64,000 bases of DNA, taken from IMG/VR virus record IMGVR_UViG_3300045988_176633; one strand, given 5' to 3'. How positions within the stretch are numbered: position 1 is the first letter of the stretch; each line of letters begins with the position of its first letter. Below, one piece after another: positions 1,738 to 57,843 of the stretch. Source of the stretch: a virus. Under the pieces are notes generated by a model. The model was not told the DNA's origin. It searched no databases and saw only the letters and a list, made by a program, of their open reading frames with translations. Position numbers and translations under genes: made by a program.

Positions 1738-4529
1738 ATCGTGTTTATTTGAACCGTTATATGACTATCTTCACGAAGACTATTAATCGCTATGAATGAG
1801 CTCATACAAATATCGTCATGAGCACCAACAGCTTCTAATTTACCTCTGTCACTTCTAAAAGTAATAGAAGAGAATTCACCAAAAACAATCTTCACCATAT
1901 CTCTTGTTGGTCCTACTGCATATGGTATTTTTATTTGACCTCTTTCAAACATTGCCGAAAGACTTGGTAAACCAGTATGAAGATCCTTCTTATTGCCTTC
2001 TGTTGTTGTAAAGGTCTCAATGTTTTTCAAACCTCTTTCCCTTGCTAGTCCACTTAAAATACTTTGAAAACCATTAGCTTCACATACAATTTTATTGGGT
2101 TTGAATAAAGTATTAAATAATACAATTTTATCAACTTGCTCATTGTGACTCATTCCTTTCTGTCTATGGATCGCTATCAAATAATAATTATCCATAAAAT
2201 CGATCCCCCATACTGTGTAAACTGTATAGTCTGCACCGATATTACCAGAAACTGCAAAATCACAACCAACAACAACCCTTTGTAATTTAAATGGAAAGTA
2301 ATCAATGGTATCTGCAAAAGAAATATTTTCCATCCCAACTGTCGATCTCATTAAAAACTCATAAGGGAAAATGGTACTACTATCTGCAATAGGAACTACT
2401 AAGTATTCACGACTAAATACCATTGTACCTAACTCATCTTTTTTCTGAATAATATCATCAAAAGTATATCTATCTGGAGCAAGAGGACGTCCATCTGGAA
2501 ATATTATCGGATACTCAAAGACTGCAAAACGTTTATCAGCTTTAATAATATTATAAAGTTCATTAGGAGCAGTTGAATATGGTGTACCAGAAATCAAGAA
2601 ATACCCATAAGGTTCAACAATGGGACTGATTGTCCCTCGAAAAGTTTCTTTTAATTTTTCTCTCTGTTCATCACTATAAATAGAACTTTCATCTGGCATA
2701 TCATCAACTATAGCTGCACCAACATGTAAACCACGAATCATAGAATCTTTACCACGAACATGTAATATTCCTCCGTTTTCAGTTTCAATCATCGTCTCTC
2801 CTAATTTCGCTTTTTTATTAGGATTAAGTTTGTTACTTAAAATTGGATTTGTCTCTATTTCTTCAATGATTTTCCCAACGTGAACCTTAGCAAGAGTTAT
2901 CATATTAGTAATCAGAGCGGTTTCCTTTCGATTCTTATTATCAATCGTATCACCAGCATAAAAAATTGGTTTTGTATAACTATATAATCTCCATAATGGG
3001 AATGCGTAAGCAAACTCATAACTATTATGAACAACAGTCCCATCTGATAATAAAAATTTATGATCTCCATCTAAAGAAAAACCATAATAATCACCTTTGC
3101 CAACTGGAGTTATTGATAAACTACTTCTACTAAAATCTTGAATTTTCTCAATCTTTAGACATTTCTTTCTTTCGATCTTAGTAGGAATCGTGTCGATATC
3201 TCCAGAAATATTACATTGATATTGGATATTACCTTTTAAATCATATTTTTTACCATTTGTTTTTAATGTTGTACTAACAACTCTTTTTCTAACTGAAACA
3301 CATCTAAATCCTAAAGATAAAGCTAATTGTCTAACATCATTTATTAATCGCTCATTTGAATTCGCAAAAATAAATGACTTTCCTCCATTTTTCTTAGTCT
3401 TCTCTAAAGAACCGTCTGTATCGATAAGACCTGCTAACAATTGAAGTCTCTGTTGTCGAGAACTTCTCATATAAATATCTGGAATATGTTTATTTCTAAG
3501 AACATTTAACTTTTCGAGATTTTCATTAAGAAAATTTCTTTTTGATCCAGGAATATTTACAATACATGAATATAATTCTTTTTGATGAAAAGAACAAAAT
3601 CTTCTTTTGTGAATCCCTCCCAATCTATCAGCATACTGATCCAAATAAAGACAAATCTCTGGATCAATTGTAGTTATAACTTGATTATGAGAATTTCCAT
3701 CACCTAACCATAATCCTAAAAAATAAGGTTCTATAGAAAGAGATTTTTCAGGAAGATCCCAACCCTTAACTCTATATCCATAGATCTTTTTATATCTATA
3801 TAACCATCTTTGAGGAATTTTTTCAACTGGAATCTCCTCTTTACAAATTTCTCTTCCTATATATTTTTTACCTTTCGAACCATGATCAATATATTTTTCT
3901 TTATCCCATTGAATACAAACCAAATGACCCTCATTTACACAATAATCCTTTGCATAAGTCTGATGAATTTTATACATAGGTGCTTTACCTCTATGCAATT
4001 GAAGAACTTTCCTTGGTGTTGAATCTGGTCCCATAACTAAATCACCGACTTTGACGTCTTGAACTTTCTTTAGAGATCCATCATACATAACCACTAACTC
4101 ATTGAGACTCATACATTTCCCAGAACCGCGACTACAAAGATAACTAGACCAAGGAAATAATTGAGTTAAATTCCCCCATTCTAAATTTCTCCATCCCATC
4201 ATAAAATTAGATAAGACAGTCGCACAAAAATAATTGAAAGACAATATTCTCAATCTCTCATCCATAGCTGCAGCTAGATTGTCAATGTACGAAAGATTTT
4301 CAGTATCTAACGATCTACCGAAATTCATTGCCATATCAGTTTGATTAACAATCTCTGTTAGAAGTTTATCTATGTCCTCAGAATAACCTTCTAACAATTG
4401 ATTGATCGAATGTGCAGGCAATCTTTCAATTATATCGTTTGCCGCAGAATATAACCTCCTGTTTTGTAAGAGTGTAAATTTGCTAGCTGGTTTATCTTGT
4501 TCAGTCCAATCTTGTTGTTTGATTATCAT
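1734..4529 (-). CDS. terL: Terminase large subunit, interrupted by an intein
   Basis: 931 aa. The exteins give P-loop SRGSGK/S, Walker B AAIVDDMPDE, coupling motif SGTP, and nuclease-type acidic motifs VVGCDFA, CEANGFQ and AHDDICMS. Confidence 0.85.
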   Translation of the reverse strand: MIIKQQDWTEQDKPASKFTLLQNRRLYSAANDIIERLPAHSINQLLEGYSEDIDKLLTEIVNQTDMAMNFGRSLDTENLSYIDNLAAAMDERLRILSFNYFCATVLSNFMMGWRNLEWGNLTQLFPWSSYLCSRGSGKCMSLNELVVMYDGSLKKVQDVKVGDLVMGPDSTPRKVLQLHRGKAPMYKIHQTYAKDYCVNEGHLVCIQWDKEKYIDHGSKGKKYIGREICKEEIPVEKIPQRWLYRYKKIYGYRVKGWDLPEKSLSIEPYFLGLWLGDGNSHNQVITTIDPEICLYLDQYADRLGGIHKRRFCSFHQKELYSCIVNIPGSKRNFLNENLEKLNVLRNKHIPDIYMRSSRQQRLQLLAGLIDTDGSLEKTKKNGGKSFIFANSNERLINDVRQLALSLGFRCVSVRKRVVSTTLKTNGKKYDLKGNIQYQCNISGDIDTIPTKIERKKCLKIEKIQDFSRSSLSITPVGKGDYYGFSLDGDHKFLLSDGTVVHNSYEFAYAFPLWRLYSYTKPIFYAGDTIDNKNRKETALITNMITLAKVHVGKIIEEIETNPILSNKLNPNKKAKLGETMIETENGGILHVRGKDSMIRGLHVGAAIVDDMPDESSIYSDEQREKLKETFRGTISPIVEPYGYFLISGTPYSTAPNELYNIIKADKRFAVFEYPIIFPDGRPLAPDRYTFDDIIQKKDELGTMVFSREYLVVPIADSSTIFPYEFLMRSTVGMENISFADTIDYFPFKLQRVVVGCDFAVSGNIGADYTVYTVWGIDFMDNYYLIAIHRQKGMSHNEQVDKIVLFNTLFKPNKIVCEANGFQSILSGLARERGLKNIETFTTTEGNKKDLHTGLPSLSAMFERGQIKIPYAVGPTRDMVKIVFGEFSSITFRSDRGKLEAVGAHDDICMSSFIAINSLREDSHITVQINTI
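3024..4115 (-). mobile_element. Intein (364 aa) with LAGLIDADG homing-endonuclease domain, inserted in the TerL P-loop
   Basis: N-terminal junction GSGK|CMSLNEL (Cys1, TGT at 4113-4115). C-terminal junction VVHN|S (AAT at 3024-3026, then AGT Ser). Two LAGLIDADG blocks, LGLWLGDGN and LLAGLIDTDGS. Excision restores GSGKS. Confidence 0.85.
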
Positions 4530-8294: not shown

Positions 8295-11200
8295 TTATTT
8301 CCAACCTGACGGAATCAAATTTGAATAAGATATCTTTGAACATCCTTTGAAAGTTTGATAATGTGATGCTGACGAAGGAGCTAAATCCCAAAGCCAACCC
8401 AGTGTAATTGGTTTAGATTCTGCAATAATAGGCATAGATTGTAATTCACTACAATTCAAGAAAGCATAATTCCAGTTAGTAACTGTAGAAGCTATATTTT
8501 GCGATATAACAATCACTTGTAGCGAGTTATAAGTTGAATCACCAACTCTTATACAACCATTCAAAAATTCTGACATATTCTGTAAAGAAGTGCAACCGTT
8601 AAATGTACCATGAGAAGACTCAGCTCCTCCATCTGGAGCCCATTCTGTTAAATTAGTACAATTCTTGAAACAAGAAGCTACTGAAACCAATCGAGATTGA
8701 CCAGCAAAAAATCTTGGTGGAATTCTTTGTACACCAGAACCTTCAAAAGCTCTTGCCCAAGTAGTCACATTTCCATTCTCAATCTTACATCCAGAAATAT
8801 CTGTCAATGATTTACAATCAATGAAAGACCAACTGAAACTAGAAGCACTAGTGGGGAAGCAATCTGAACCTATACTACTCAGTAATATGCAACTATGAGC
8901 TAATACATTGAAATTAGTAGCTCTTGTGCAATTCCTGAAACATCTAGCTGGAATACTTCTCAAATTGGTACAAGAAGAAACTAATCCTTCGAAAGTAGTT
9001 GCGTATACACAACTATCAAATAAACCAGAAGGAATCGAAGAAATTCCACTGTTTGCAAACGTGTAATAAAACGATTCTGCATTTCGTGGGAAAATAGAAC
9101 TTCCAACACTTGAAAGCGAACTACAACCATTGAAAGCTGACTCAAAATCAGTACCATTTCTAAAAGGACTACCTGATACACTCGAAAGCGATTTACAATC
9201 TCTGAATACACTAGCGAACAATGTAAGATTACTTCCGAATAAGTCCAAAGGCACACTTGTTATTCCAGAACCTCTAAAACAATTACTAGCATCACTTCCT
9301 GATACATTTAATAAAAGTCCAGAAGGAATACTTCTTAGAGCTGTACAATTCCTAAACCAACTCTCTATTGATCCACTAATATTTGGTGAACCAGACGCTA
9401 AACTTGATAAACTTGTACAACCATTAAATACACTTGTTCCATTTATTGGAAAATATCCTGGCCATTGTGTAACAGCTAAGACGCTTGTATTATTCTGACA
9501 ATTAAAATTCAACGTACTAGGGTTGGTCCTAGATCCTCCTACTATCTTCAACTCATTACCAGACCATTCGTAATCAACTGAAGATCCAAAGCTCGGGAGT
9601 CTTTGACTGCTCATCCGAAGGATCAATGCCTTGTAAAGTGCGACAACAAGACCTGTTGTATTGATAGCTATCCGTCTGGTTGTTATTGGTAAGCAACCAG
9701 ATTCTTCTACCTTCAGAAGGACATACGCCGAATATGGAGCGTTTATAACGTATTTCCCTTGATAATCAGAAGATCCATTGCCACTACTAACTACCACGTT
9801 AGAATCCGCAGATTCATATACTGTATATGATATATTGACTCCAGATGCGTTTGAACCATCAATTAAAGTCGTCACTGTAAATTCTCGTAACGAATAAGTC
9901 AATGAAACTTGTTGATTAGCATCATTATTCGAAACTTGAACAGTGCCTTCTTTATCATAGTAACCTACAGCTTGTATCGTCCAATTATATAAACCATTTC
10001 TCTTATCTGGAAACGTCACTTTTCCACTAGTATCTGTAGTCTTTGTATCACCGTCTAATACTATTGTTGCATTAGGGACAGCATTACCATTAGTATTTGT
10101 AACTGTAAAATTAATATTATATGTCTTGTTCGTCAATAATACATTGATTGTTTGAGGTGTATCTGTAATCGACACTTCACCTGAAACAGAAGTATATTCT
10201 GGACGCTTAGAAACTTCGTAATCATACGAGTCAATTGGGAGGGTGTATTTTGCCTTACCTTGACTATTTGTAATTCTGGTAATATTATTACAAACAACAG
10301 TCGCAGCTTCCACTGGTTTCCCTAAATCATCGACAACCATGAAAGTTACTTGACCATTTCGTCTAACCAAATTTATATCAAACACATAAGGAGCACTGTT
10401 CACGACAAATTGTCCTTGTTGTGAAGCATAAATCGTTTTCTTCGCCGTCCAATTATAGGAACCATTAGGTAGTTCAGTCGATACTTTTCCTTGGCTATCT
10501 GATTCCCCAGAATAAGATCCTAAAGTAACAGTTGCGCCAACTGAAATTTGACCTTCTTCTCTTACAGTTGCAGTCACTTGATACATCTTTTGTGACATTG
10601 TTATATTGACCGTTTCTGGACCTCCATTTACACCAAATAAATCTGTAATAGTGTGATATTCGTTTAATGTCGCTGTATAATTAAAAGATCCATCAGGTAA
10701 ATTGATAGTTGCTTGTCCCTGTGCGTTTGTAGTTATAATAGGATTGTTTTCCACCTGAATAGAAACACCAGAAAGTTTTTTATTATTATCGTCTTGTACT
10801 ACAAAAGTAACAACATAAACTTTTTGGTTCATTCTAATTTCAATATCAGAATCCTCATCAACAGAAATTGTATTTTTATAATCATTGTAACCAGCTTTCG
10901 TCGCTGTTAAAGAATACGATCCAGCTTTAACAATGAAACTCACTTGACCACTTGAATCAGATATTTTAGTTGAACCGGCAAAAGTTACTGAAACACCTGT
11001 CAACAATGAAACTACCCCTTGATAATTAACACCTCTTGTTGTAAATGTCACATTATAAGTAGGAACTGGATTCATTGTTATATTTTGAGTCACTGGGGCA
11101 TTAGTTACAGTCACAGATCCTGTAACTGGCAACCAATCAATTTTTTCAATTCGATAATTGAAAGTACCTACTAAAACATCTTTAAAAACAGCTTGTCCTT

Positions 11201-13028
11201 GTTCATTGGTATCAATATATGTATTGTTAAAATTAATTCTAGCTCCTTGAATAGGATTTGAAGAAGAATCTTTCACAATAAAAGTTACATCAAAAATAGG
11301 GATTAATTGCATCGTGACATTCTCAATCATATCGTCACGAACAAGGACTGACTTATCAACCGGATAATACTTTTCCTTCTCAACTGTATACAGATATAAA
11401 TCTGGATAAGCCATGAAGAATGTACTACCATCTTGACCTGTTGATTTAACCTCATTATTGAATTTAACAACAGCTCCTAAAATAGCTTTAGCTTGTTCAT
11501 TCTTGACAACAAAAGTTACCTTACGTTTGTAAAGTTCTCCTTGCATTTGTATATAACAAATCTGCTCATCTCCTTCGATTTCTTCTTCTACATATAGAAC
11601 ATTATTGACAATAGAAATGAAAAGGTTTTTTTCAACTGAATAAAGATAATCGCCAGGATAAAGATCAAGAGTTACTTCACCATTAATATCTGTTTGCAAT
11701 TCTTGATCTGCTATTGTAATAGTAGCTCCTTTAATATATTCTTTTCTTTCAGAAAAAACCTTGAAACGTACAGTTGTTTTTGTAAGAGCTTTAATCTCTT
11801 CACTAGCAAAAATATTTTTATATGAAACTAAATAAGTTTCTATAAATTGATCTATAGTAGATGTAGAAGAATAAGAATTATTCCTATAATAGGAGGCGAT
11901 TATGTTTTTCTCCCCTAGATAACCTTGATAGAAAGGTAAATATATTGGTTTGATCTTTATATCATAAATATTTAAATTTGAACTAACTTTAGTTCGATCT
12001 TGAACCAAATACAAAGACATGTATTTGATACCTTCTACAAATCTTAATCCTCTTCCATTAGGGAAATTCAGGGCTACTTCGTCGACAAAACTTCTATTTT
12101 TCTTTGAAATTGTTGCTCTTAACTCATAATAAATATCGGCGTTGTTTAACGTAACAGAAGCGTCATTTTTAACAAATGAATTGCTTTGTACAGTACCAAT
12201 CGATTCAATACAAGAAACAGGTCTCTTCAATTCATCATAAACTTGGACTCCAAAAGTCAAATTCATGTTTTGAATATTATCTGTTTTTAAACGTAAAGAA
12301 ACTTGATAAGCTAAATCTTCATCAACTACTAGAAGTTTATCTAAATCTCCTTCTGAACTGATTCCTACCAACTCATTTCCTATAAAAGTCATAGTTTGGA
12401 TAGGTTCATTATCGTTGTCTACATCAGCTTGTAAAATAACACCACTAGGATTGATTAATGGATATTTATCTAAATTTTCAATATTGCTTGAACATTCGTA
12501 GGCTTTGGTTATATTCTCAACTGTATCTGTCCTATTCCAAGTAGGAGAGCTATGTCCTAATGTCCAACCACTATCTTTAGGAGCTAGAAGGGCAAAGATG
12601 AATTCATTTAAATCGTTGTATCGAATCAAACGAAGAAGTTCTCCTAATATAGTACCTTCTTTTGAAACGATATCCATACGACCTCTTTTTCTATACTCTT
12701 CTACATAGTTGTTGAAAAGATATTGCATTTGTTCTGTCGTATCAACAGTATCGGTTACCAAACCTCTTTCTTTGATAAAGATATCAAATAAGATCTTGTT
12801 TACATCAATCTCTTCGTATTGTCGTCCATATAATACAACAATCGCAAAAAGATGTGTCACAGATCCCCAAAACGAAACAAAATCTTCATTTTGTTTATTA
12901 AAAAAAACAGGAAGAATACCTGGACTACATATTTTATCCAAGACATTCTGTGCCCAAGCCTGAATTTTAATATCATTCTTTTCAAAGAATTTTTTAAATA
13001 TAGTTCTATTATATATTATATCTGCCAT
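8295..13028 (-). CDS. Tail fibre / receptor-binding protein: about 9 CarboxypepD_reg-like beta-sandwich repeats plus C-terminal BspA-type leucine-rich repeats
   Basis: 1,577 aa. Repeats of about 85 aa of the form (Y/F)xVTFxVxDxxxxPIxGAxVxxxxxxxxTdxxGxxxxxLxxGxYxYxxxKxGY span roughly nt 9476-11786. The C-terminal 360 aa carry FxxCxxLxSI/V-type LRRs (FNGCTSLSSL, FRNCTALRSIPSGL, FRDCKSLSSV, FNGCSSLSSV, CTNLRSIPARCFRNC). Confidence 0.7.
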   Translation of the reverse strand: MADIIYNRTIFKKFFEKNDIKIQAWAQNVLDKICSPGILPVFFNKQNEDFVSFWGSVTHLFAIVVLYGRQYEEIDVNKILFDIFIKERGLVTDTVDTTEQMQYLFNNYVEEYRKRGRMDIVSKEGTILGELLRLIRYNDLNEFIFALLAPKDSGWTLGHSSPTWNRTDTVENITKAYECSSNIENLDKYPLINPSGVILQADVDNDNEPIQTMTFIGNELVGISSEGDLDKLLVVDEDLAYQVSLRLKTDNIQNMNLTFGVQVYDELKRPVSCIESIGTVQSNSFVKNDASVTLNNADIYYELRATISKKNRSFVDEVALNFPNGRGLRFVEGIKYMSLYLVQDRTKVSSNLNIYDIKIKPIYLPFYQGYLGEKNIIASYYRNNSYSSTSTIDQFIETYLVSYKNIFASEEIKALTKTTVRFKVFSERKEYIKGATITIADQELQTDINGEVTLDLYPGDYLYSVEKNLFISIVNNVLYVEEEIEGDEQICYIQMQGELYKRKVTFVVKNEQAKAILGAVVKFNNEVKSTGQDGSTFFMAYPDLYLYTVEKEKYYPVDKSVLVRDDMIENVTMQLIPIFDVTFIVKDSSSNPIQGARINFNNTYIDTNEQGQAVFKDVLVGTFNYRIEKIDWLPVTGSVTVTNAPVTQNITMNPVPTYNVTFTTRGVNYQGVVSLLTGVSVTFAGSTKISDSSGQVSFIVKAGSYSLTATKAGYNDYKNTISVDEDSDIEIRMNQKVYVVTFVVQDDNNKKLSGVSIQVENNPIITTNAQGQATINLPDGSFNYTATLNEYHTITDLFGVNGGPETVNITMSQKMYQVTATVREEGQISVGATVTLGSYSGESDSQGKVSTELPNGSYNWTAKKTIYASQQGQFVVNSAPYVFDINLVRRNGQVTFMVVDDLGKPVEAATVVCNNITRITNSQGKAKYTLPIDSYDYEVSKRPEYTSVSGEVSITDTPQTINVLLTNKTYNINFTVTNTNGNAVPNATIVLDGDTKTTDTSGKVTFPDKRNGLYNWTIQAVGYYDKEGTVQVSNNDANQQVSLTYSLREFTVTTLIDGSNASGVNISYTVYESADSNVVVSSGNGSSDYQGKYVINAPYSAYVLLKVEESGCLPITTRRIAINTTGLVVALYKALILRMSSQRLPSFGSSVDYEWSGNELKIVGGSRTNPSTLNFNCQNNTSVLAVTQWPGYFPINGTSVFNGCTSLSSLASGSPNISGSIESWFRNCTALRSIPSGLLLNVSGSDASNCFRGSGITSVPLDLFGSNLTLFASVFRDCKSLSSVSGSPFRNGTDFESAFNGCSSLSSVGSSIFPRNAESFYYTFANSGISSIPSGLFDSCVYATTFEGLVSSCTNLRSIPARCFRNCTRATNFNVLAHSCILLSSIGSDCFPTSASSFSWSFIDCKSLTDISGCKIENGNVTTWARAFEGSGVQRIPPRFFAGQSRLVSVASCFKNCTNLTEWAPDGGAESSHGTFNGCTSLQNMSEFLNGCIRVGDSTYNSLQVIVISQNIASTVTNWNYAFLNCSELQSMPIIAESKPITLGWLWDLAPSSASHYQTFKGCSKISYSNLIPSGWK

Positions 13029-13070
13029 AATTAAGTTGTTTCCAACGATTCAAAGTTACTAAAATGAAAG

Positions 13071-13102
13071 CAAACTATAACCAACAACAGTGTCAAAGCA
13101 AA
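13071..13102 (-). promoter_or_regulatory. Weak promoter-like site upstream of the 1,577-aa fibre gene
   Basis: Minus strand TTTG-N19-TATAGTTTG. This is not an exact TAnnTTTG. Confidence 0.2.
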
Positions 13103-13155
13103 CTTTTTCAACCGCATAAAGATATCTACTTCCTTCATAACAAACAACATTTATT

Positions 13156-14037
13156 TTGTTTTTAAACACCTCAATCACTCTCCAGAAGGCAGCTAAACTT
13201 GTACAGATCACGACTCCACTGAATACAGAAACTGCAATTAATATTGAAAGTGGATTTTCAAAGTTAGAGTGGTGTTTAGTACACGCAGGTGCAGGTGGAG
13301 GAGGTGGAAATGTAAGATATCCAGGCGGAGGAGGTGGAGGAGGAAGTACTATTCTTGGAGAATTATTAACTTTATTAGATGGCGGCACTTATACTGGAGG
13401 TTATATTATAAGAAGTGGTGGAGTTGGAGGCGAAGGTAGAACTTCTATAGCTCCAGGAGGTATAGGAAAAGAACCAGATATGGCTAATATCTGGTTTAAA
13501 AAGAATGGAAGTTATGTTTACAATATTTTACACCAATTTAATGGTAACGGAGGATCAGGAGCTGGTAGTGGAGGAAGTAACGGAGGTCCTGGTAGTGGTC
13601 TTCTTAATACATTTGGTGTAAAACTTGGTATAGGTGGCGGCGGTGGTGGAGGTAGCGAAGGAGAAACCGATTTTGCTGCAGGTGGTGCAGGTGGTGCAGG
13701 TGGTGCAGTTTATTATAACGGTACAACTTATAATGGAGGAAAGGGTTACAGCCCATCTAATATTTCAGTTCCAAATGGTGGCGGCGGCGGCAGTGGTGCT
13801 AGTAGTACAAATATAGGAAAGAATGCTGTGAATTACATAGGAGCATTAAGTGTTGGTGTACCTAATGATTTTGAAAAATATGGAATAACTGGAAGCGGTG
13901 AAGGTGGAAATGGAGGAAAAATAGGTTCAGGTGGAGAAAGTTCTCTTCCAAACTATGGTTCAGGTGGAAAAGGTGGAAAAATAAAAGAAAGTGGATTATC
14001 TGGACAACAAGGTATTCTTTTTATTTATTATCATTAA
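13156..14037 (+). CDS. Silent alternative C-terminal tip cassette for the 14084..20377 fibre gene (not an independent gene in this orientation)
   Basis: Only long + strand ORF. It opens with an incidental TTG 9 nt before the inverted repeat. Residues 4-21 (NTSITLQKAAKLVQITTP) are identical to fibre residues 1756-1773. The remaining 272 aa are Gly-rich and paralogous to the expressed tip, ending GILFIYYH versus GIIELYYK. Confidence 0.75.
   Translation: MFLNTSITLQKAAKLVQITTPLNTETAINIESGFSKLEWCLVHAGAGGGGGNVRYPGGGGGGGSTILGELLTLLDGGTYTGGYIIRSGGVGGEGRTSIAPGGIGKEPDMANIWFKKNGSYVYNILHQFNGNGGSGAGSGGSNGGPGSGLLNTFGVKLGIGGGGGGGSEGETDFAAGGAGGAGGAVYYNGTTYNGGKGYSPSNISVPNGGGGGSGASSTNIGKNAVNYIGALSVGVPNDFEKYGITGSGEGGNGGKIGSGGESSLPNYGSGGKGGKIKESGLSGQQGILFIYYH
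13165..13218 (+). repeat. Left arm of perfect 54-bp inverted repeat (putative recombination site)
   Basis: AACACCTCAATCACTCTCCAGAAGGCAGCTAAACTTGTACAGATCACGACTCCA is the exact reverse complement of 15059-15112. Identity ends abruptly at 13164 and 13219. Confidence 0.9.
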
Positions 14038-14051
14038 TTTAAATAAAACAA

Positions 14052-14075
14052 GGGCCTGGAAATGAATCCAGGCCC
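14052..14075. terminator. Bidirectional hairpin terminator between the convergent tip cassettes
   Basis: GGGCCTGGA-aatgaa-TCCAGGCCC (9-bp GC-rich stem) with T-rich tracts downstream on both strands. Confidence 0.75.
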
Positions 14076-14083
14076 TATTCAAT

Positions 14084-17000
14084 TTATTTATAGTATAATT
14101 CAATAATACCTTGTCCTCCATTTCCTCCGTTTCCACCTTTATATGAAGAATTGTAAACTCTTCCACCTCCTCCTCCACCAGCTCCATACTCTCCTAGACC
14201 ACCGTTTCCACCATCGCTAGTAGTGCTGCTACCATTTCCACCATTTCCACCTTTACCAAAGGATCCACCTCCACCACCTCCTCCTGAAGAATTACTTCCA
14301 CTTGTTCCACTTCCACCTGTTCCACCATCACCTTTTGAAGGTAAAAGAATATCTGGAATGACTGTATAAGTACTAGTTCCAAATCCACTTCCACCTGTTC
14401 CGTAATTTCCACCATCAATTGTTGATCTATTGGTATAACCAGAACCACCATCTCCTCCTGTACCATTTCCTCTATTTAAATTTCCTCCTTCACTAACACC
14501 ACCTTTACCTCCTCCTGTTGTATGCGCTAGACCTTTACCACCTATCGCTCCTTGAATACTACCAGCATTTACACGGTTATTTCTAGCACCTCCTCCTCCA
14601 CCACCTCCCCAATCGGGTGTAGATGATTCTTGATAAGAACCACCACCACCACCTCCTCCTCCACAACCCTTATTATTGTTAGAAGGGTTAACACTACCAC
14701 CATCTCCTCCGTCTCCCCTACTTTCATTGTTTAATTGAGAAGCACCGTATCCCCAACGACCTGAATATGCTTGATGTACTACATCTTCAATAGTAACAAT
14801 ACTCTCGTAACCATCATTACCAGTATAACCTTGAGTAGTCGTACTACCTCCTGCACCTCCTGCACCTGCATTACCAACTACGAGTTTTAAATTTGATATA
14901 CTTGTTGTATGATCTTTTATATAAACAATTCCACCTCCTCCGCCTCCACCTCCTGCTGCAATATTGTTTCCACCTCCTCCGCCTCCACCTCCTGCTGCAA
15001 TAAGAAAATCAACATTTGTATATCCTGGTTCTATTTGTTGATTAATTTCTGCACCCAATGGAGTCGTGATCTGTACAAGTTTAGCTGCCTTCTGGAGAGT
15101 GATTGAGGTGTTGATTGAATCATTCGACCCAGACATCGTCACAGTTCCAGTCTTAGTCACATATCCAGCCGCACTCACTGAATAGCTTAACGTTCCTGCT
15201 GCAATTCCAGCTTTTGAAGCTGCTCCACTTGAATTTGTCGTTAAAGTCCCCGTTGCTATTCCAGTTAACGTTATTTTTGCTCCTGAAATAGGACCGTTAG
15301 CGTCAGAAATAGTAAATTGTGCTGTATATAAAGCAGTTAAAGCGATATTGATAGTTGATGTACTTGAAATTGTATACGATTGACTAAACGCTTTCCAATA
15401 TGTACCTGCATCAATTGCTATTGTATGACTTCCGTAAAGTACATTTGACATTGTGATGTTACCAGAAGAATTTGTCGTACCTTTTGATGTACCATCCAAT
15501 TTCACTGTGACACCATTTCTATTAACACCCGCTCTTTTAACATTCACAACAAATGTATAATATCTCAAAAGAGCATAAGTTGCACTCTGACTATGAGAAC
15601 TTCGACTTACAGTTACACTACCAGTCGTATCTTTGTAACCAGATTTTGAAATCGTGTAAGTGTAAGAACCTGGTTTCACATTTGGAATTGTAGCAACTCC
15701 ACTTGAATCTGTCGTACCTGTAAAAGTACCTAAACTTGAGTTGACAAGTTTAACAGTTGCACTACCGACATTTGCACCAGACGTTGTATTTTCTTTAACT
15801 GTCGCTGTAAATGTAACCAAATACTGTAAACTTGCATTTACAGTTTGATTACTCAAACCAACTGTAACATTACCCGACCAAGTTTGATATCCACTTAATT
15901 CAACAGTGCAAGCATAAGCTGCTGACTGTGATTGCATTGTTACAGCTAATTGACCACTTGAATTTGTCGTACCCTTTGATGTACCAGCAACTTTCACTGT
16001 CGCTCCAGAAAGAGCTGTACCAGCGTCATCTTTAGCGATAAATGTAACTGTTACTTGACTGGTTAAAGTAATTTGTTGATTAACGTTTGTACCATTAACT
16101 GTTACACTTCCTGATTTAGCTTGATAAGGTGATTTAGCAGCACTACTCCAATTGTACGTACCATCTATTACATTAGAGAAAATCGCCTGACCACTTGCAT
16201 TTGTAGTTACAGTTTGATTATTCATAGTAACTGAAATACCAGAAAGAGCTGTACCAGCATAATTAACAAAAGTCAAAGTAACCGTACTATACTTCTCTAA
16301 AGTAACATTGATCGTCTGATTTGCATTGACAATGTTAAATGAACCAGAAGCTGATCTATATCCACTTAAAGAAGCAGTCCAAGAAACGGCACCATTTAAA
16401 GTTGCATCGTTTTTAGCACTAGCAGCTAAAATCCATTGACCGCTGGAATTTGTCGTTCCATTTGCAGTAGAAGTTCCACCAATAGTTTTAACATTACTAA
16501 TACTAACAGAAGCCCCGTTTAAATTCGTTGTCTTGTACTTAACATTAAAAGTAACACCCCAATATTTGTAGTTCTGCATTTGTACTTGAACCGTTTTATC
16601 CGCAGAACTTACTGTTGTGCTTCCAGGTTGTTGTTTGTATCCACTAGCATCTGTTGTGTAAGTATAATTTCCATTAGGGACATCAACTGAAATATTTCCA
16701 TTAGAATCTGTCGTACCAGATTTGACTGTCGTACCAGAACTATTCTTGATAACAACAGTAGCTCCACTTAAATTTGCCACACCATTTTTAACATTTAAAG
16801 TTAATAACCCTCCATGAACCATAGTTAAGTTCACATACGAAGTTTCATCCTCTTTAACATTGACAGTACCAGTTATCGTTTGATAACTTACAAGACTTAC
16901 TTTGTAAGTATGATTCCCTGCTGACAGCGAAACGTTGACTTGTCCATCAACACCTGTTTGATAGTTGGTAACGTTATCGATCAAAATATTAGCACCTTGT

Positions 17001-20000
17001 AAAGGATCAGTTCCATCTGTAACTGTAAAGACAGCTCTTTTGCCTCGTTTCAATGAAATAGCTACTGTCTTATTTGCATTAGCAATAGTATCGTCTCCTT
17101 CACCTGTTGAATAATCTGAGAAAGACGCTCCCCAATGAAACGAACCGTTTATCGCTTGAACCTGAGGTGTACGTCCTGCGTCATTTGTCGTTAATTCAAT
17201 CGACGATTGACCAGCAGGAAGAACAATAGCTTCACCACTTACAACAACTTTGGCTCCTGATAAGATCGTCCCTTGTTCTCCTGTAACTGTAAAATCTAAT
17301 AAATAAATCCTATCAATTTGAACATTGATCGTATCAATGCCTGTAACAGTTATTTGAGTTGTCGTACTGATGTAATTCTGTTTTGTGATAGAAACTTCAA
17401 AATCACCTTTTGGAAGTTGTAAAACTGCTTCACCACTTGCATTTGTTAAAACTGATTGACCCTTTGCCGATACAACAGCATCTTGAACTAAAGCAGGTGT
17501 TGGAGTTGTTTTATCTCTTACCACAAATGTGATCGGATAAGTAACTGGATCTAAAGAAACTTGTACACTTGTATCTGAATTACTTACCGTTACAGAACCT
17601 GTCTTTGTTTGAAATTCTGTTGCAGATATCTCATATTGATGTATACCATTTACCAAACCAATCACCGCAATACCACCAGCATTAGTCTCTACCGTTATTC
17701 CTTCAACTGTTATCGAAGCACCTTCAACTGGAACACCTTCACTCGTAACAGAAAAGATAACGTTCCAAGGTCTCAATACCATTGGTACATCTACAGATAC
17801 ATTGGAATTATTAACAACTAAAGTTCTATCAACATCTACATAACCAATTTTAGTCACTGTATAGTCATAAGAACCATTGATTAACGTCAACTTCACTAAA
17901 CCATCTTGACCTGTTGAATATTGTTGACCATTTATATTGATAACTGCTCCTTGAATAGGAGTGTTTCCGTCTTTGACAGAGAAAGTTATCGACCAGGGAT
18001 AATCAACCATTTTAGCGACAACGCTAACATCGTTATCTTTCACCAGAACAGATCCTGAAAAGTCATAATAACCCAATTTTTCAACCTTATAAGGATAGGT
18101 CCCATTTTGCAAACCAATTTGCACTTTACCACCTTCATCGGTTACAAGTACTTGATCTGAAATAGATACTAAAGCATCTTGAATGGGGTTGTTCTTAGAA
18201 TCGACAACAGTTATGAAAACATCGTAATGTCTGAAATCTAACTGATAGACGAAATCAGCGTCTGATGTATCAATGTTAAAATTAATCGTTAAATCGTCAT
18301 AAATTGGATTTGTGATTGTACCAGTATATTCACCATTTGTCAATCTAAAAACAACTAATCCATTGCTATTGGTACGAGCAACTAATCCATTGTTCAACGT
18401 TATTAACGCATCTGGAATCACTTTACCAGAAACAAGTTCAATGACCTTAATAGTAACATTATACTTGTAAAGATCCATTTCGATAGTTCTTGTTTCATCT
18501 TGATTTAAAACCACAATAAGAGCTTGTGTATCTACATATCCTGGTTTACTAAATTTAGCAAGATAACTTCCATTGATCAAACTAACTTGAACCTTACCAT
18601 CGTCATCTGTCACATAACTATCACTACCTATCTCAACTAAAACACCTGAAATAAAATTCTCAGAATTGAGACCTTTTACGAAAATTGTTTGTACCCATTT
18701 ATGATAATATAAAGTAACTGGTACATAAACATCTGAATTATCAACAACGACAGAACTTCCTTCATTAGAATCAAAACCTAATTTTTCAACTGTATAAGGA
18801 TAGGTCCCATTTTTCACCAACACTGTTGCTTCACCGTTGACATTAGTTGTTAAAGTTTGATTAGCAATAGAAATGGTTGCGTCTACAACTGGTACACCAA
18901 ATTGATCTTCAACCATGAAACTAACCTGAAATGGAGCTAATTCTAATACAATACCAATGTAAACCGGCGCATTCAATACAACAAATTGTCCTTGTTGTTG
19001 TTTATACTTTTCTTTACTAGCAGTATAAATGTAATTACCATTTACCAAAGAAATAGTCGCTAAACCATCTTCATCTATGATAACAGATCCACTACCAACA
19101 GAGATTCTCACACCCGACAACGGATTACCATCTTCATCTGTGATAGTAAAATAAACTGGTTGTCTAAGTGCTAATGCACTATCATTTAAACCTTGAAATA
19201 AATCCTCTTGTCCTGCAGGATAAAACATAGGAGAGAGTTCACTTCCAGCATCGTATAAAACAATACCTTCAAGATTTCTCATTACGAATCCTTTAATTCT
19301 AGGAAGTTGATTAGGTGGAACTTCTTGGTCGTAATATGGAAAGAAATATTCGTCAGGAACATATTTGACACCTTCAGCATTCTTCACGATACCAAGTAGA
19401 TCATCCCATTGAACGATCTTACCTGCTTCCCAGAATCGAAAGTCGAGATATTTTGTCAAAGCTACCTGAATATTTTTTCTTACTGTAGCTACATCGTAAG
19501 AAGGATCAATTTCTATTCGAAAATCCATCCCACGCTCACTACCAATAAAAAACCATTCAGCATTCTTTAATTGAATCCCAACAACGTTTCCTTCGAGGTT
19601 TAATTCAAAAAGTCCAAAATAACTTTTAGATTTCTCTAATAAAGTCTCTAATTCATCCTGTGTGAATAAAATTCCATTTTGACTTACTAGATAAAGATAA
19701 AAGATTCCATCTTCTCCCAACCCAACATTTAATACTTTCAAAATACGATCATCGATATTTTGGAATATTTGAGTATAATATTCCAACGTTCCTTTAGAAA
19801 GTGTGTTGAGGTTAGTCATGATCCTAATACGAAAAGTCTCATCATCTTCACTATCTCTACCACCTGTAGCCATGTATTCATTAGTGCATTCAATATGACC
19901 ACTAGGAGCAGGAGTGACGTTGATAATACTATTTGCATCGACATTTGTAACCAATCCTTGGTTAACACTTCTGACACTTACATATGCATAACCAGATCTA

Positions 20001-20377
20001 CCAACTGTAACAGATTCATTTACAGAGAAACGAATACCGTTTTGATTTACAAAGAAATTAGTTTCATTGTAAATAGTTCCCGGGTCTGCATAAACTCTCA
20101 CATAAGTAGATGAACCAAGAGCACCTTTTCTTGGACTAACCCCAAAAAGTGCCGCTGATTTATCGAGATATTCTCCTGTAGCTGTTTCTGGGAATATCTT
20201 TGCTTCTGTGATAGCAATATCTTTGATCGCTTTTTGTGCGACTTTTGCAGTACCAAAAGCCACAGCATTTAAGACTGAACCATCAGCTACATTCGTAACT
20301 TTATTGGTCTTGTCTAAAAACAGCTCGATCCAAAGATTTTTAAGCGTCGAAATTGTATTACTAACTTGCGTTATCAT
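14084..20377 (-). CDS. Baseplate-J-like protein fused to a long fibre (about 17 CarboxypepD_reg-like repeats) with a glycine-rich C-terminal tip
   Basis: 2,097 aa. The N-terminal 400 aa are Baseplate_J-like (TATGEYLDKSAALFGVSPRKGALGSSTYVRVYA...). About 17 beta-sandwich repeats of about 80 aa span roughly nt 15113-19165. The last 324 aa are Gly-rich with G5-G8 runs. Confidence 0.75.
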   Translation of the reverse strand: MITQVSNTISTLKNLWIELFLDKTNKVTNVADGSVLNAVAFGTAKVAQKAIKDIAITEAKIFPETATGEYLDKSAALFGVSPRKGALGSSTYVRVYADPGTIYNETNFFVNQNGIRFSVNESVTVGRSGYAYVSVRSVNQGLVTNVDANSIINVTPAPSGHIECTNEYMATGGRDSEDDETFRIRIMTNLNTLSKGTLEYYTQIFQNIDDRILKVLNVGLGEDGIFYLYLVSQNGILFTQDELETLLEKSKSYFGLFELNLEGNVVGIQLKNAEWFFIGSERGMDFRIEIDPSYDVATVRKNIQVALTKYLDFRFWEAGKIVQWDDLLGIVKNAEGVKYVPDEYFFPYYDQEVPPNQLPRIKGFVMRNLEGIVLYDAGSELSPMFYPAGQEDLFQGLNDSALALRQPVYFTITDEDGNPLSGVRISVGSGSVIIDEDGLATISLVNGNYIYTASKEKYKQQQGQFVVLNAPVYIGIVLELAPFQVSFMVEDQFGVPVVDATISIANQTLTTNVNGEATVLVKNGTYPYTVEKLGFDSNEGSSVVVDNSDVYVPVTLYYHKWVQTIFVKGLNSENFISGVLVEIGSDSYVTDDDGKVQVSLINGSYLAKFSKPGYVDTQALIVVLNQDETRTIEMDLYKYNVTIKVIELVSGKVIPDALITLNNGLVARTNSNGLVVFRLTNGEYTGTITNPIYDDLTINFNIDTSDADFVYQLDFRHYDVFITVVDSKNNPIQDALVSISDQVLVTDEGGKVQIGLQNGTYPYKVEKLGYYDFSGSVLVKDNDVSVVAKMVDYPWSITFSVKDGNTPIQGAVININGQQYSTGQDGLVKLTLINGSYDYTVTKIGYVDVDRTLVVNNSNVSVDVPMVLRPWNVIFSVTSEGVPVEGASITVEGITVETNAGGIAVIGLVNGIHQYEISATEFQTKTGSVTVSNSDTSVQVSLDPVTYPITFVVRDKTTPTPALVQDAVVSAKGQSVLTNASGEAVLQLPKGDFEVSITKQNYISTTTQITVTGIDTINVQIDRIYLLDFTVTGEQGTILSGAKVVVSGEAIVLPAGQSSIELTTNDAGRTPQVQAINGSFHWGASFSDYSTGEGDDTIANANKTVAISLKRGKRAVFTVTDGTDPLQGANILIDNVTNYQTGVDGQVNVSLSAGNHTYKVSLVSYQTITGTVNVKEDETSYVNLTMVHGGLLTLNVKNGVANLSGATVVIKNSSGTTVKSGTTDSNGNISVDVPNGNYTYTTDASGYKQQPGSTTVSSADKTVQVQMQNYKYWGVTFNVKYKTTNLNGASVSISNVKTIGGTSTANGTTNSSGQWILAASAKNDATLNGAVSWTASLSGYRSASGSFNIVNANQTINVTLEKYSTVTLTFVNYAGTALSGISVTMNNQTVTTNASGQAIFSNVIDGTYNWSSAAKSPYQAKSGSVTVNGTNVNQQITLTSQVTVTFIAKDDAGTALSGATVKVAGTSKGTTNSSGQLAVTMQSQSAAYACTVELSGYQTWSGNVTVGLSNQTVNASLQYLVTFTATVKENTTSGANVGSATVKLVNSSLGTFTGTTDSSGVATIPNVKPGSYTYTISKSGYKDTTGSVTVSRSSHSQSATYALLRYYTFVVNVKRAGVNRNGVTVKLDGTSKGTTNSSGNITMSNVLYGSHTIAIDAGTYWKAFSQSYTISSTSTINIALTALYTAQFTISDANGPISGAKITLTGIATGTLTTNSSGAASKAGIAAGTLSYSVSAAGYVTKTGTVTMSGSNDSINTSITLQKAAKLVQITTPLGAEINQQIEPGYTNVDFLIAAGGGGGGGGNNIAAGGGGGGGGIVYIKDHTTSISNLKLVVGNAGAGGAGGSTTTQGYTGNDGYESIVTIEDVVHQAYSGRWGYGASQLNNESRGDGGDGGSVNPSNNNKGCGGGGGGGGSYQESSTPDWGGGGGGGARNNRVNAGSIQGAIGGKGLAHTTGGGKGGVSEGGNLNRGNGTGGDGGSGYTNRSTIDGGNYGTGGSGFGTSTYTVIPDILLPSKGDGGTGGSGTSGSNSSGGGGGGGSFGKGGNGGNGSSTTSDGGNGGLGEYGAGGGGGGRVYNSSYKGGNGGNGGQGIIELYYK
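14929..15002 (-). repeat. 35-bp perfect direct repeat x2 with 39-nt (13-codon) period inside the expressed tip
   Basis: 14929-14963 equals 14968-15002. Encodes IAAGGGGGGGGNN / IAAGGGGGGGGIV. Confidence 0.85.
15059..15112 (-). repeat. Right arm of perfect 54-bp inverted repeat, in frame inside the fibre gene
   Basis: Reverse complement of 13165-13218. Position 15112 is the first base of codon 1756. Confidence 0.9.
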
Positions 20378-21170
20378 ATATTAAAAATGATTTAATCCCT
20401 TCAATTCGCTCAAGCCAATTTTCGGGAAGTTTATCTCGTTTTTCTAAATTATCTTTGGCCCATAAAGGTTGTAAATTTCTGAAATTGAAACAAATACGTT
20501 GTTGATTAGGATCTGAAAGATCAAAAGAGGCACAAGGAACAATATGATCAACGTGCCATTCACCGTAATTATCCCAACTCATTCCTTCAACAAACTGATT
20601 CTCAAGGTGTTTCTTGAGATCCTCAAGAGAGCAACCGATATATTTAATTGTGTGGTGTAATTTACGATTTTCTTTTAAAACTCTATACAATCTATTTCGT
20701 AAATTTAACTTCAAAATAAAATTAATATCTCGTTCTCTTCTTTTTTCTTTTGAATATTGCAAAACATATTTACTGATTTTCTCTTTATTCTTTCGCTGAT
20801 ATTCTTTGTGATATTCTTTTAAATACTCTTGATTTTTTAAATTCCAATTCTTTATTCGAATAAACTGAGCCTCTCTGTTGTTTTTATAATATTCTTTGTG
20901 TTGTTTTCTTAATCTTTCTTTATTGTTTAAATAATAAAGATGCGACCTTTCTCTCTGTTTATCTTTATTATTTAAACGTCTCTCCTGTGATTTGACTATA
21001 ATTTTAACTCTATTCTTCTGATAATAAGAATCACTACTTTCTTTATAACAATCCTTACAACGAAGACTCAAACCATCAGATTTACACTTACATTTATAAA
21101 AGTTATCGAGAGGGAGTTCTCGTTTACAACGAGAACAAACTTTTAGACCGGTTTCAAAATTCGCTTTCAT
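20361..21170 (-). CDS. Free-standing HNH homing-type endonuclease (paralogue of 32918..33688)
   Basis: N-terminal CxxC..CxxC zinc ribbon, basic Y/N/K-rich repeats, and HNH core WHVDHIVPCASF...NLQPLWAKDNLEKRDK. Overlaps the fibre gene start by 17 nt. Confidence 0.8.
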   Translation of the reverse strand: MKANFETGLKVCSRCKRELPLDNFYKCKCKSDGLSLRCKDCYKESSDSYYQKNRVKIIVKSQERRLNNKDKQRERSHLYYLNNKERLRKQHKEYYKNNREAQFIRIKNWNLKNQEYLKEYHKEYQRKNKEKISKYVLQYSKEKRRERDINFILKLNLRNRLYRVLKENRKLHHTIKYIGCSLEDLKKHLENQFVEGMSWDNYGEWHVDHIVPCASFDLSDPNQQRICFNFRNLQPLWAKDNLEKRDKLPENWLERIEGIKSFLIYDNAS

Positions 21171-21173
21171 AAA

Positions 21174-22082
21174 TTAAATAGGAATGTTGATAATATAACT
21201 ATTTGCACTAATAGTCGTTGCTCTTATAGATAAAAAGACCGAATCTTGATCTCTCTTTAAATCCAAGAGCTCAACTGTTTTCCATCTACTATCTCTTTGA
21301 AACATATTCATAAGTCCCTTGAAAATAGTAGCATATTGAATGGCGTTCACCGTTGTTCCAATAAATTCATTGGTTATTCCATAATCTTCAAATTCTGGGT
21401 AAGAACCTTTTAAAGAACTTTGAATCAATTCTAAGGCTTGTACCATTGCTTGATCATATTCAATCACCTTTAAATCATCGTTTTCAAAGGTAAATGATTT
21501 ATCTAAATCAACACCAAGAATACTTTTCCCATTTAATACATCAACAACATTATCAACGTAATTTAACCCCACATTCTGAAGATTAACTGAAAATATAGGA
21601 GAAGAAGAATTTGTATACAATTCTTCTGTGATGTATTGAGGTACTGTTATATTTACCCAATCGTCTTGAGGAGTTATTGCATCGAGATTTGCTGATACAT
21701 CTTCAAAAGTTTCATCAGATTGAAGTATCTTTTCAACTTTGATCGTGTTAGTTCGAACATAATCAAACACACTTCTCATCCATTTAGCTGAACTCCTTAT
21801 CGTCAAAATCTTTGTTTGAATCTCTGTGAAAGTGTCTAATAATTCCCAGGCATCGAGATCATTTAAAGAATTTTTGTGCAAAGTAAAAAGAGGTTCTATT
21901 TTATTAACCTCTTTAGTTAAACGATCTAAAGCATAGAACGATTCTTGTCTTATACTACCACCTTGATAGTAATCGACAATATAAGGATATTCTGTTGATA
22001 CAAAATCAACAAAACTCTGAAAAAATGATTTTATATCATATCCAGTTATATTCTCAAATTTTTCATACATCGTCTCATTCAT
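21174..22082 (-). CDS. Putative baseplate wedge component (302 aa)
   Basis: Position between spike/hub genes and the J-like gene. No motif recognised. Confidence 0.4.
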   Translation of the reverse strand: MNETMYEKFENITGYDIKSFFQSFVDFVSTEYPYIVDYYQGGSIRQESFYALDRLTKEVNKIEPLFTLHKNSLNDLDAWELLDTFTEIQTKILTIRSSAKWMRSVFDYVRTNTIKVEKILQSDETFEDVSANLDAITPQDDWVNITVPQYITEELYTNSSSPIFSVNLQNVGLNYVDNVVDVLNGKSILGVDLDKSFTFENDDLKVIEYDQAMVQALELIQSSLKGSYPEFEDYGITNEFIGTTVNAIQYATIFKGLMNMFQRDSRWKTVELLDLKRDQDSVFLSIRATTISANSYIINIPI

Positions 22083-32150: not shown

Positions 32151-32921
32151 TCATATATTTTCTAAAAAGTTATCAATAGCTATTTGTGCTACACGACTTA
32201 TATCAGCTCGTTCCAATGCTTTATCCATCAATTTTTTAGGTGGTATACCTCCGTTCCACCAACTAGCTGGACTAGATTTATCACTAACACGTCTAAACGT
32301 AAAGTAACCACTCCTAACTTCTTTATCAGTAGACTGTATATTGACTTTTACCAATCCTTGATATTTAGGAGATTTATGCATATACTCAGGTACAACTAAA
32401 CCAGGTACGTTAATTTCTTTTCTGATCCCTGGTAGTTTGTGTTGTTCAGGTAAATCAGTTGTTTTTAAAGGTCTTGTTGATTGTTTGGCAATATTATAAA
32501 TTTCTTTAGGCATGATAGAAGAGAAGATACCTGATTCAGCGACTGCTTCTGGTGTCGCATGTCTAAATGGTATGGTTAAATACCAACCTCCGTCTTTTTT
32601 CTCTTTGACTTTATCAGATCTCTGAAATCCTATTTTCTCATCAAAAGGACTGGCACCTTCTTCAATCATGATAGCAAGAGGACTTTCTCTTGCCATCAAA
32701 CCAAAAACAACCTCCATACCAGAAGGTCGTTCCATGAACATTGCACGTTTATATTCAGATCGAGATTTTTTTAACTCTCGATTGACTAGATCCTCCCAAC
32801 GAGTGGAATATTCTACTATAACTTTATCAATGATAGATGTCCCAAGAATCTCCGTTTGATTTGCTGTTAAAGAAAATTCTTCAACTAAATCACTTAAATC
32901 TATGTTTATAGGTAGGATCAT
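32151..32921 (-). CDS. Putative neck / tail-joining protein (256 aa)
   Basis: Synteny only. Confidence 0.4.
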   Translation of the reverse strand: MILPINIDLSDLVEEFSLTANQTEILGTSIIDKVIVEYSTRWEDLVNRELKKSRSEYKRAMFMERPSGMEVVFGLMARESPLAIMIEEGASPFDEKIGFQRSDKVKEKKDGGWYLTIPFRHATPEAVAESGIFSSIMPKEIYNIAKQSTRPLKTTDLPEQHKLPGIRKEINVPGLVVPEYMHKSPKYQGLVKVNIQSTDKEVRSGYFTFRRVSDKSSPASWWNGGIPPKKLMDKALERADISRVAQIAIDNFLENI

Positions 32922-39938: not shown

Positions 39939-39954
39939 ACTCTTTTCAATAAAA

Positions 39955-39978: not shown

Positions 39979-39992
39979 AGAAACTAACAAAA

Positions 39993-57816: not shown

Positions 57817-57843
57817 ATCTTTTAATTATTACTGTTTCTTTTT

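Follow-up and report, generated by a model that had tools for sequence, protein, structure and literature searches.

A putative invertible tail-fibre tip switch with no recognisable invertase in a family of apparently virulent ~100-kb phages

The virus record IMGVR_UViG_3300045988_176633 (IMG/VR), of which we analysed a stretch of 64,000 nucleotides (hereafter the window), carries a giant gene for a tail fibre fused to a baseplate J domain. The 3' end of this gene lies in a segment bounded by inverted repeats, where it faces a second, silent version of the fibre tip. Both the anatomy of the locus and its comparison with relatives support the view that it behaves as an invertible tail-fibre tip switch rather than as a dead duplication. 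The explanation that we favour, and consider somewhat better than an even bet, is a two-cassette invertible switch of the receptor-binding tip on a giant baseplate fibre, which would be flipped by homologous recombination and complemented by cassette exchange.

The two arms of the inverted repeat (Table 1) are exact reverse complements over 54 nt, as direct comparison confirmed base for base. The sequence occurs nowhere else in the window at up to three mismatches (0 expected from 100 dinucleotide-preserving shuffles), and a search with a 16-nt seed found them to be the sole inverted repeat of at least 30 nt across the 64 kb. The expressed-side arm falls, at the codons given in Table 1, within a 2,097-aa open reading frame (ORF) located at 14084..20377 on the minus strand. 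The silent-side arm is in the same codon phase and heads the longest plus-strand ORF of the window (13156..14037, 293 aa), which has no ATG and starts at an incidental in-frame TTG at 13156, in the intergenic flank and 9 nt upstream of the arm. The inverting segment measures ~1.95 kb and holds the two tips with a 46-nt hairpin-bearing spacer between them; there is no U-like chaperone gene, and the tip alone would be switched. Inversion would give an in-frame protein of 1773 + 272 = 2,045 aa. The exact match of the arms, their shared codon phase, the missing ATG, the length of the in-frame product, and the lack of a chaperone gene had been put forward in a first-pass annotation made from the sequence alone, and the ORF list and translations bear them out. 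The same annotation also held that identity stops abruptly at every edge of the repeat, which is correct for the outer edges, sharp and at the same position in all clade-1 genomes (described below), but not for the inner ones, where 9 of the next 13 positions still match (67 nt at 94%, 13165-13231 and 15046-15112). In the relative L004, the extra inner bases beyond the 54-nt arms are identical too.

Table 1. Features of the switch locus, with positions in the window.
Feature	Position	Strand	Description
Constant fibre part, codons 1-1755	15113..20377	-	N-terminal Baseplate_J and ~14 CarboxypepD_reg/PEGA-type beta-sandwich repeats
Expressed-side repeat arm	15059..15112	-	Codons 1756-1773, peptide NTSITLQKAAKLVQITTP; joins shaft to tip
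Expressed tip cassette A, 324 aa	14087..15058	-	Glycine-rich, presumed receptor-binding tip; stop codon 14084-14086
Symmetric hairpin between convergent stop codons	14051..14076	both	AGGGCCTGGA-N6-TCCAGGCCCT, intrinsic-terminator-like
Silent tip cassette B, 272 aa	13219..14034	+	In frame with the left repeat arm; stop codon 14035-14037
Silent-side repeat arm	13165..13218	+	Codon phase equal to that of the expressed arm; 94% extension to 13231
Intergenic flank outside the inverting segment	13029..13164		Separates the silent arm from the next fibre gene, 8295..13028(-)

Pfam searches recover Baseplate_J (E = 3.2e-16) and CarboxypepD_reg (6.1e-83, in 14 stretches) in the fibre, and tip A matches Gly_rich_2 (PF21722; E = 6.6e-8, 33.3 bits), above the gathering cut-off of 24.3 bits. 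The proposed glycine-rich tip on a fibre fused to baseplate J is thus found in a single ORF. Tip B scores slightly below the same cut-off (E = 2.4e-4, 21.6 bits), and a B-type protein (P0003) has a precomputed PF21722 match. The same N- and C-terminal strands are present in 14 of 14 aligned tips, and the shared endings that had been noticed are indeed GGQGIIELYYK and GQQGILFIYYH, each followed by the stop codon. Position, hypervariability, and analogy with glycine-rich gp38 adhesins suggest that the tip is the receptor-binding part; a 14-tip profile compared with PDB sequences yielded a chance-level match only (E = 0.48).

Cassette B lacks both a promoter and an ATG and runs antisense to all the genes around it. 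A scan for sigma-70 promoters returned fewer sites than shuffled sequences, but this consensus is inapplicable to Bacteroidota promoters and nothing is concluded from it. The hairpin between the two cassettes folds at -22.2 and -24.5 kcal/mol (z ~ -5.2) and is a predicted terminator on both strands, in agreement with the earlier suggestion that it could terminate in either orientation. In the form GGGCCTGGA-N6-TCCAGGCCC, it is kept in nearly all clade-1 loci regardless of the cassettes that they carry (L058 has a GGCCTGGA variant), and it forms the conserved 3' boundary of every cassette.

Two neighbours of the fibre gene deserve mention. Directly downstream of the switch lies a second giant fibre-like gene (8295-13028, 1,577 aa), with CarboxypepD_reg repeats and a cysteine-rich, leucine-rich-repeat-looking C-terminal part, which has no silent partner. 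At the other end, the start of the switchable fibre gene is overlapped by a homing-endonuclease gene (20361-21170) of HNH/endonuclease-VII-like type, which has a paralogue at 32918-33688 (with DNA stretches 89-94% identical) and further copies outside the window (L023:14004-14606 and 15961-16755).

Under the favoured explanation, the fibre gene would be read via the 54-bp junction into tip A and stop at the hairpin terminator, while tip B, lying head-out on the opposite strand behind the inverted junction copy, would stay silent for want of a start codon or promoter. A crossover between the two junction copies would invert the 1.95-kb segment, fusing B in frame and silencing A. Such a crossover would occur by general homologous recombination, likely through the phage's own SbcD, RecA, SbcC, and Holliday-junction resolvase, possibly with host RecA in addition. 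Co-infecting relatives would also swap single cassettes, using the 5' junction on one side and the 3' C-terminal strand and hairpin on the other, and through such exchanges the population would share a pool of at least ten tip types.

The first line of comparative evidence comes from ~17 loci (clade 1) that we found in public contigs using the exact inverted repeat, a degenerate version of it, and the shaft protein. Every clade-1 locus follows the same plan: shaft, repeat, tip, hairpin, reversed tip, reversed repeat. Cassettes vary widely, with at least ten tip types in clade 1 (Table 2). The expectation that relatives would set conserved arms against diverged cassettes thus holds for the cassettes, but the repeats themselves differ between clades.

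Table 2. Tip types in the expressed and silent slots of clade-1 loci.
Loci	Expressed tip	Silent tip
Window, L004, OGCZ01000075, L132	A	B (B' in L132)
L006	B'	C
L007, L059	C	G/I-like
L003, L056	D	E (93 aa)
L005	F	H
L058	J	K
L133	I	M
P0006	L	not seen

Tips B, C, and I are each found in both slots. The silent slot contains B in the window, L004, L061, and L132, C in L006, and I in L057 and L060; the fibre is fused to B in L006 and L054, to C (97.4% identity) in L007 and L059, and to I in P0005/L133. The strongest case is the comparison between L132 and L006, the flanks of which are 99.6% identical, whereas B' occupies opposite slots in opposite orientations. Five contigs (L005, L007, L054, L057, and L062) end within the segment, and they were not used as evidence of heterogeneity. 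Tip E is a miniature silent tip of 93 aa, identical in its two assemblies (L003:12008-12340 and L056:1571-1903), in which two glycine runs and the outermost strands of the domain (the first and the last) are retained.

Silent cassettes are open from the repeat to the stop codon in 9 of 9 clade-1 loci and in 14 of 15 genomes of a second clade (23 of 24 in total); the decayed left cassettes that the first-pass annotation regarded as the mark of a dead duplication are therefore absent from these nine clade-1 loci. This openness does not go along with a conserved start, as the TTG has no counterpart in L003, L056, and L060 and an in-frame start is missing in 8 of the 15 clade-2 genomes. Between the window and L004, the silent B copies show 33.5 synonymous and 27.5 non-synonymous differences, that is, a ratio of non-synonymous to synonymous rates (dN/dS) of 0.24 (chi-square ~32 against neutrality, by our own arithmetic from these counts). 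The silent cassettes thus evolve under purifying selection, and a copy that had never been expressed would lack this pattern. In tip A, the expressed one, the window and L004 are separated by 11 non-synonymous changes and a single synonymous one.

Phage isolates did not extend this sample: megablast of positions 12000-22000 against INPHARED phages returned no match, and neither did tblastn of tip A, probably owing to the low-complexity filter. When tip B or an artificial fusion of the shaft to B served as query in homologous-protein searches, poly-glycine words dominated the candidates, and the exact flipped form of the window strain was not among the proteins listed (three for tip B, six for the fusion). 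A search for contigs that encode P0001, a protein annotated from this cassette by gene callers, gave none.

The second line of evidence comes from more distant loci, of which the Baseplate_J part as query retrieved 64. Clade 2 is at ~71% amino-acid identity. A silent convergent tip is present in ~16 of ~54 informative clade-2 loci, and a repeat of 39-68 nt was found in 15 of them; the remaining loci (about two thirds) have a single tip followed by a terminator. Clade 3 comprises three loci (L117, L118, and L121), with a repeat of 65-66 nt and tips of ~480 aa that are not glycine-rich. In both clades, whole segments are reversed between collinear genomes. For example, L097 and L100 have collinear flanks (~90%) and a segment that is reversed at 90.5%, and L093 and L097 behave in the same way. 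In clade 3, L117 and L118 have flanks 98.5-99.2% identical and again a reversed segment. Reciprocal inversion between the repeats has therefore occurred repeatedly in this phage family. Silent copies can decay, as seen in L084, where the silent tip is frameshifted by a 1-nt deletion, and in the mismatched arms (32/36) of L073 and L084 (L084:18816-18855). These two clade-2 loci may be switches in decay or recent chimeras.

The repeats themselves are informative on the mechanism. From clade to clade, they vary in sequence, in length (39-68 nt overall), and in where they fall on the homologous protein, and no core is common to all three: the repeat peptide is NTSITLQKAAKLVQITTP in clade 1, (QSNYQLDT)SYKYVSLLIVGRGG in clade 2, which is the next stretch downstream of the clade-1 peptide, and QSITLYALYVSSSGWFAPVTSK in clade 3. 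Within clade 2 alone there are eight repeat haplotypes, with differences at as many as about one position in four. Arms are nevertheless identical within 12 of 15 clade-2 genomes, compared with 83% identity between genomes (permutation p <= 5e-5, uncorrected for kinship). Similarly, lineage-specific variants are present in both arms of OGCZ01000075 (Q to A) and of L058. In addition, conversion to B-head sequence at the head of tip A reaches a different extent in each of the window, L004, and L132.

Conservative site-specific recombination at a fixed point produces neither homogenised arms nor conversion tracts of variable extent, whereas homologous recombination with heteroduplex repair produces both. 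Paralogous cassettes share a conserved 5' coding end, and it is this end that forms the inverted repeats, as is characteristic of inversions made by general homologous recombination. Homology-driven inversion is thus favoured by the concerted evolution of the arms, by the variable conversion tracts, by the lack of a detectable invertase, and by a complete recombination module in the phage. Inversion would not act alone, since the change from A|B' to B'|C (expressed|silent) requires cassette exchange as well. Exchange of single cassettes is readily explained because relatives are homologous at both cassette borders, with the junction on the 5' side and GGQGI..YY, stop codon, and hairpin on the 3' side.

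The search for an invertase required the rest of the genome. Contig IMGVR_3300045988_179618, 93-98% identical to the window, spans it from 23753 to 1, continues for 37 kb beyond, and re-enters it at 63997, and independent assemblies of relatives measure 98.8-102.8 kb. The genome is therefore ~101 kb long and either circular or circularly permuted. To cover the 37 kb that the window lacks, we tiled them from relatives L023, L028, L031, and L008 (contig 179618 being among the sources). In the window, all genes are on the minus strand, G+C is 33.8%, and gene content includes an intein-containing terminase, a portal protein, an SU10-type capsid protein, tail genes, a holin, an amidase, and BACON-domain proteins. 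The outside part encodes a primase, QueD/QueE/FolE, PolIII-alpha, an NAD ligase, SNF2 and UvrD helicases, and RNase H. The phage appears to be a virulent myovirus of ~101 kb, with no integrase in evidence.

By portal protein, the nearest isolates are Chryseobacterium phage MA9V-3 and Bacteroides DAC phages (~35% identity), and a human faecal contig reaches 65% identity. BACON-domain proteins are encoded at 45497-46984 (E = 9e-15) and 63131-63823 (8e-7), which speaks for a host among the Bacteroidota and possibly for virion binding to glycans. Together with the nearest isolates, these proteins indicate that the host is probably a member of Bacteroidota; a scan of genome contigs gave one weak match in a Porphyromonadaceae metagenome-assembled genome (39% over 97 aa) and no host assignment.

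No site-specific recombinase was detected, as far as Pfam, PHROG, and tblastn searches can reveal one. Pfam found no Resolvase, Phage_integrase, or transposase family in the 52 window ORFs of at least 100 aa, confirming that the window has no visible recombinase gene, and tblastn with Hin, Gin, and XerD queries gave nothing below E = 1. Nearly all ORFs of at least 100 aa in the outside 37 kb were likewise free of Pfam matches to serine or tyrosine recombinases, transposases, and reverse transcriptases, and a PHROGs scan of 20 unannotated ORFs revealed no recombinase. No ORF, XerD-type recombinase included, lies between the cassettes, and no Phage_integrase match occurs in the scanned genome. 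The first-pass annotation had envisaged a recombinase supplied by another part of the phage genome or by the host; for a phage enzyme of Gin/Cin-like or tyrosine type, the tiled 37 kb give no support. That part of the genome does contain a block of adjacent SbcD-like (E = 1e-42), RecA (4e-80), SbcC-like (4e-48), and Holliday-junction-resolvase (3e-12) genes (L028:16933-21422, on contig 179618), which by these matches constitutes a phage-encoded set of homologous recombination genes.

From this evidence we infer that homologous recombination drives the inversion, and flipping may take place within single populations. Several observations weigh against this explanation. Both orientations are known from comparisons between assembled genomes and not within one population, and the orientation of clade-2 assemblies is skewed ~14 to 1, such that inversion may be rare. 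A repeat of 54 bp is near the lower limit for efficient RecA/UvsX-type recombination in T4 and E. coli, and the permutation test on arm identity ignores shared ancestry. The genes outside the window were read from relatives that are 93-98% identical and not from the window's own genome. About 40 ORFs of the genome have no family match, 20 of them covered by PHROGs, and a novel recombinase is possible. Finally, the receptor-binding role leans on position, hypervariability, and a Pfam domain of unknown function, and the AlphaFold2 model of tip B is unusable (mean predicted local distance difference test score of 48, from a 7-sequence alignment). We are more tentative about the broader proposition, which we find plausible but short of probable, that virulent gut phages have a class of programmed host-range switch with no need for a dedicated invertase, in which their own RecA, SbcCD, and resolvase flip in-frame inverted repeats of 40-70 bp at a useful rate, so that tips alternate within a lineage and a pool of at least ten cassettes is shared.

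The main alternative is that a site-specific invertase, either encoded by the host or an unrecognised phage protein, drives inversion at the repeat in the manner of Mu and P1 or of Bacteroides. The sharp outer edges of the repeat, at a constant position throughout clade 1, are as expected under this hypothesis, and candidates would not be lacking, given the phage ORFs without family assignment and an inferred host among the Bacteroidota, which carry many invertases. An invertase would, however, have to be reconciled with the absence of Resolvase and Phage_integrase matches in ~101 kb, with unrelated repeats at different positions of the protein in three clades, with eight haplotypes in a single clade whose arms are still identical, and with variable endpoints of conversion tracts. 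We consider it rather unlikely.

It may also be that there is no regular switching, the reversed cassette being a stored donor for occasional conversion or exchange and inversions being rare evolutionary accidents. Near-identical genomes with different partner cassettes (A|B' versus B'|C), where replacement is needed besides inversion, are consistent with this possibility, as are the orientation skew of clade 2 and the single tip of about two thirds of its genomes. It accounts less well for independent reciprocal reversals of the whole segment in clades 2 and 3, for purifying selection on copies that have no start codon, and for the perfect arm identity maintained in most genomes. This possibility, which we judge unlikely, by a shade more than an invertase, grades into the favoured explanation, from which it differs in rate only.

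A dead inverted duplication, or a separate 293-aa protein started at the TTG, is very improbable: gene callers do annotate a hypothetical protein of 293-295 aa (P0001-P0003) and the silent copy of L084 is frameshifted, but the dN/dS of 0.24, the 23 intact copies among 24, the missing TTG in three clade-1 loci, the lack of a conserved start codon in clade 2, the antisense orientation relative to all neighbours, and the occurrence of the same alleles fused to the shaft in other genomes all contradict it. Three further candidates were rejected. An assembly artefact is ruled out, as the same architecture occurs in IMG/VR and ENA assemblies from many samples. A diversity-generating retroelement does not fit, since no reverse-transcriptase family scores above threshold (a weak RVT_3 match lies under an RNase H domain) and the repeats are inverted and identical rather than adenine-mutated direct copies. 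Neither does an Rci-type shufflon, as there are exactly two arms and one segment and no tyrosine recombinase was found.

Among known systems, the nearest mechanistic analogue of homology-driven inversion is sapA of Campylobacter fetus, where inversion is RecA-dependent and cassettes share a conserved 5' coding stretch as inverted repeats. The sap system concerns a bacterial surface protein, has repeats of ~600 bp, and moves a promoter, whereas the present locus involves a phage fibre, repeats of 39-68 bp, an in-frame fusion, and phage-encoded recombination genes. As in Mu G/Gin, P1 C/Cin, e14 Pin, and p15B Min, a segment of a tail-fibre gene bounded by inverted repeats provides in-frame alternative C-termini, which are convergent, one of them being silent for want of a promoter or start. 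Unlike in these systems, no serine invertase gene was found beside the segment or in the scanned genome, the segment has no tail-fibre assembly gene (U/U'), the repeats do not seem to form a conserved site of the 26-bp type, and the phage shows no integrase and is apparently virulent, with cassettes that would be exchanged across the population. The likening to Mu and P1 made at first thus stands for the logic of a tip switch bounded by inverted repeats, but not for an invertase-driven mechanism.

In the haloviruses phiCh1 and phiH1, two convergent tail-fibre frames swap their 3' parts by inversion, which affects the fibre end only, and a XerD-type recombinase gene, int1, lies between the fibre genes and acts on clusters of short repeats (PMC6210493). 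In our locus, the space between cassettes is a 46-nt hairpin spacer and no recombinase gene was found. The switch logic thus resembles those of Mu G, P1 C, and especially phiCh1/phiH1, all of which are defined by their invertases. In T-even gp38 adhesins, glycine-rich motifs separate hypervariable segments, and recombination at these motifs swaps specificity among members of a shared module library (PMC3157838). The tips described here similarly alternate conserved glycine runs with hypervariable stretches, but gp38 is a separate protein, which is swapped between genomes only and has no stored inverted copy. A preprint on the cyanophage A-1(L)/N-1 group describes a 30-kb invertible region with inverted repeats of 400-700 bp and no dedicated recombinase identified, both isomers occurring in lytic populations and orientation being independent of phylogeny (bioRxiv 10.64898/2026.02.14.705889). 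Unlike our locus, this block is multi-gene and is not known to involve in-frame splicing of a protein. A 2026 paper claims to be the first to report putative invertons from the genomes of gut viruses (PMC13501310). Our literature search found no description of the present arrangement, a tip switch without a dedicated invertase.

The genome has other mobile and repeated elements. The terminase large gene (1734-4529) contains an intein (~3023-4109) with Hint and LAGLIDADG homing-endonuclease domains, and relatives that are 93-95% identical over the terminase region lack exactly this 1.09-kb intein. Outside the window, a ribonucleotide-reductase-like gene is interrupted by an HNH-domain intein (L008:29-3157), and the DNA polymerase III alpha gene (L028:10001-14611) consists of two ORFs split by a homing-endonuclease gene (11622-12530). 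In the head-gene region, a 145-aa ORF with a weak Hint-domain match stands by itself next to genes for a NUDIX-domain protein of 713 aa and a protein resembling PBECR1 nucleases (coordinates 42177-42614 and 39090-42134). A family of 65-nt direct repeats (62-85% identity; 54127-54191, 55471-55535, 57839-57903, and 62765-62829), located among small genes without annotation, may represent a promoter or other regulatory sequence present in several copies. Finally, genes for QueD (PTPS), a QueE-like radical-SAM enzyme, and GTP cyclohydrolase I are clustered at L023:13400-15961, which suggests 7-deazaguanine modification of phage DNA.

Invertible host-range switches are a textbook feature of temperate phages such as Mu and P1, in which they are defined by invertases. 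The locus described here indicates the same switch logic in an abundant family of virulent ~100-kb phages from human-associated metagenomes, with no recognisable invertase and with homologous recombination genes of their own. If short coding repeats and general recombination do suffice for receptor bet-hedging, inverton searches that require a nearby recombinase would miss such loci, and the host range of gut phages would be less fixed than a single assembly implies. The natural tip alleles, recorded with their slot and partner, provide a dataset that could be used to link glycine-rich tip sequence to host specificity, and the conserved junction and hairpin linkers would offer ready sites for engineering or swapping receptor-binding tips. 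The switch would then represent, in a lytic phage, an antigenic-variation system of the kind known for pilin or S-layer proteins.

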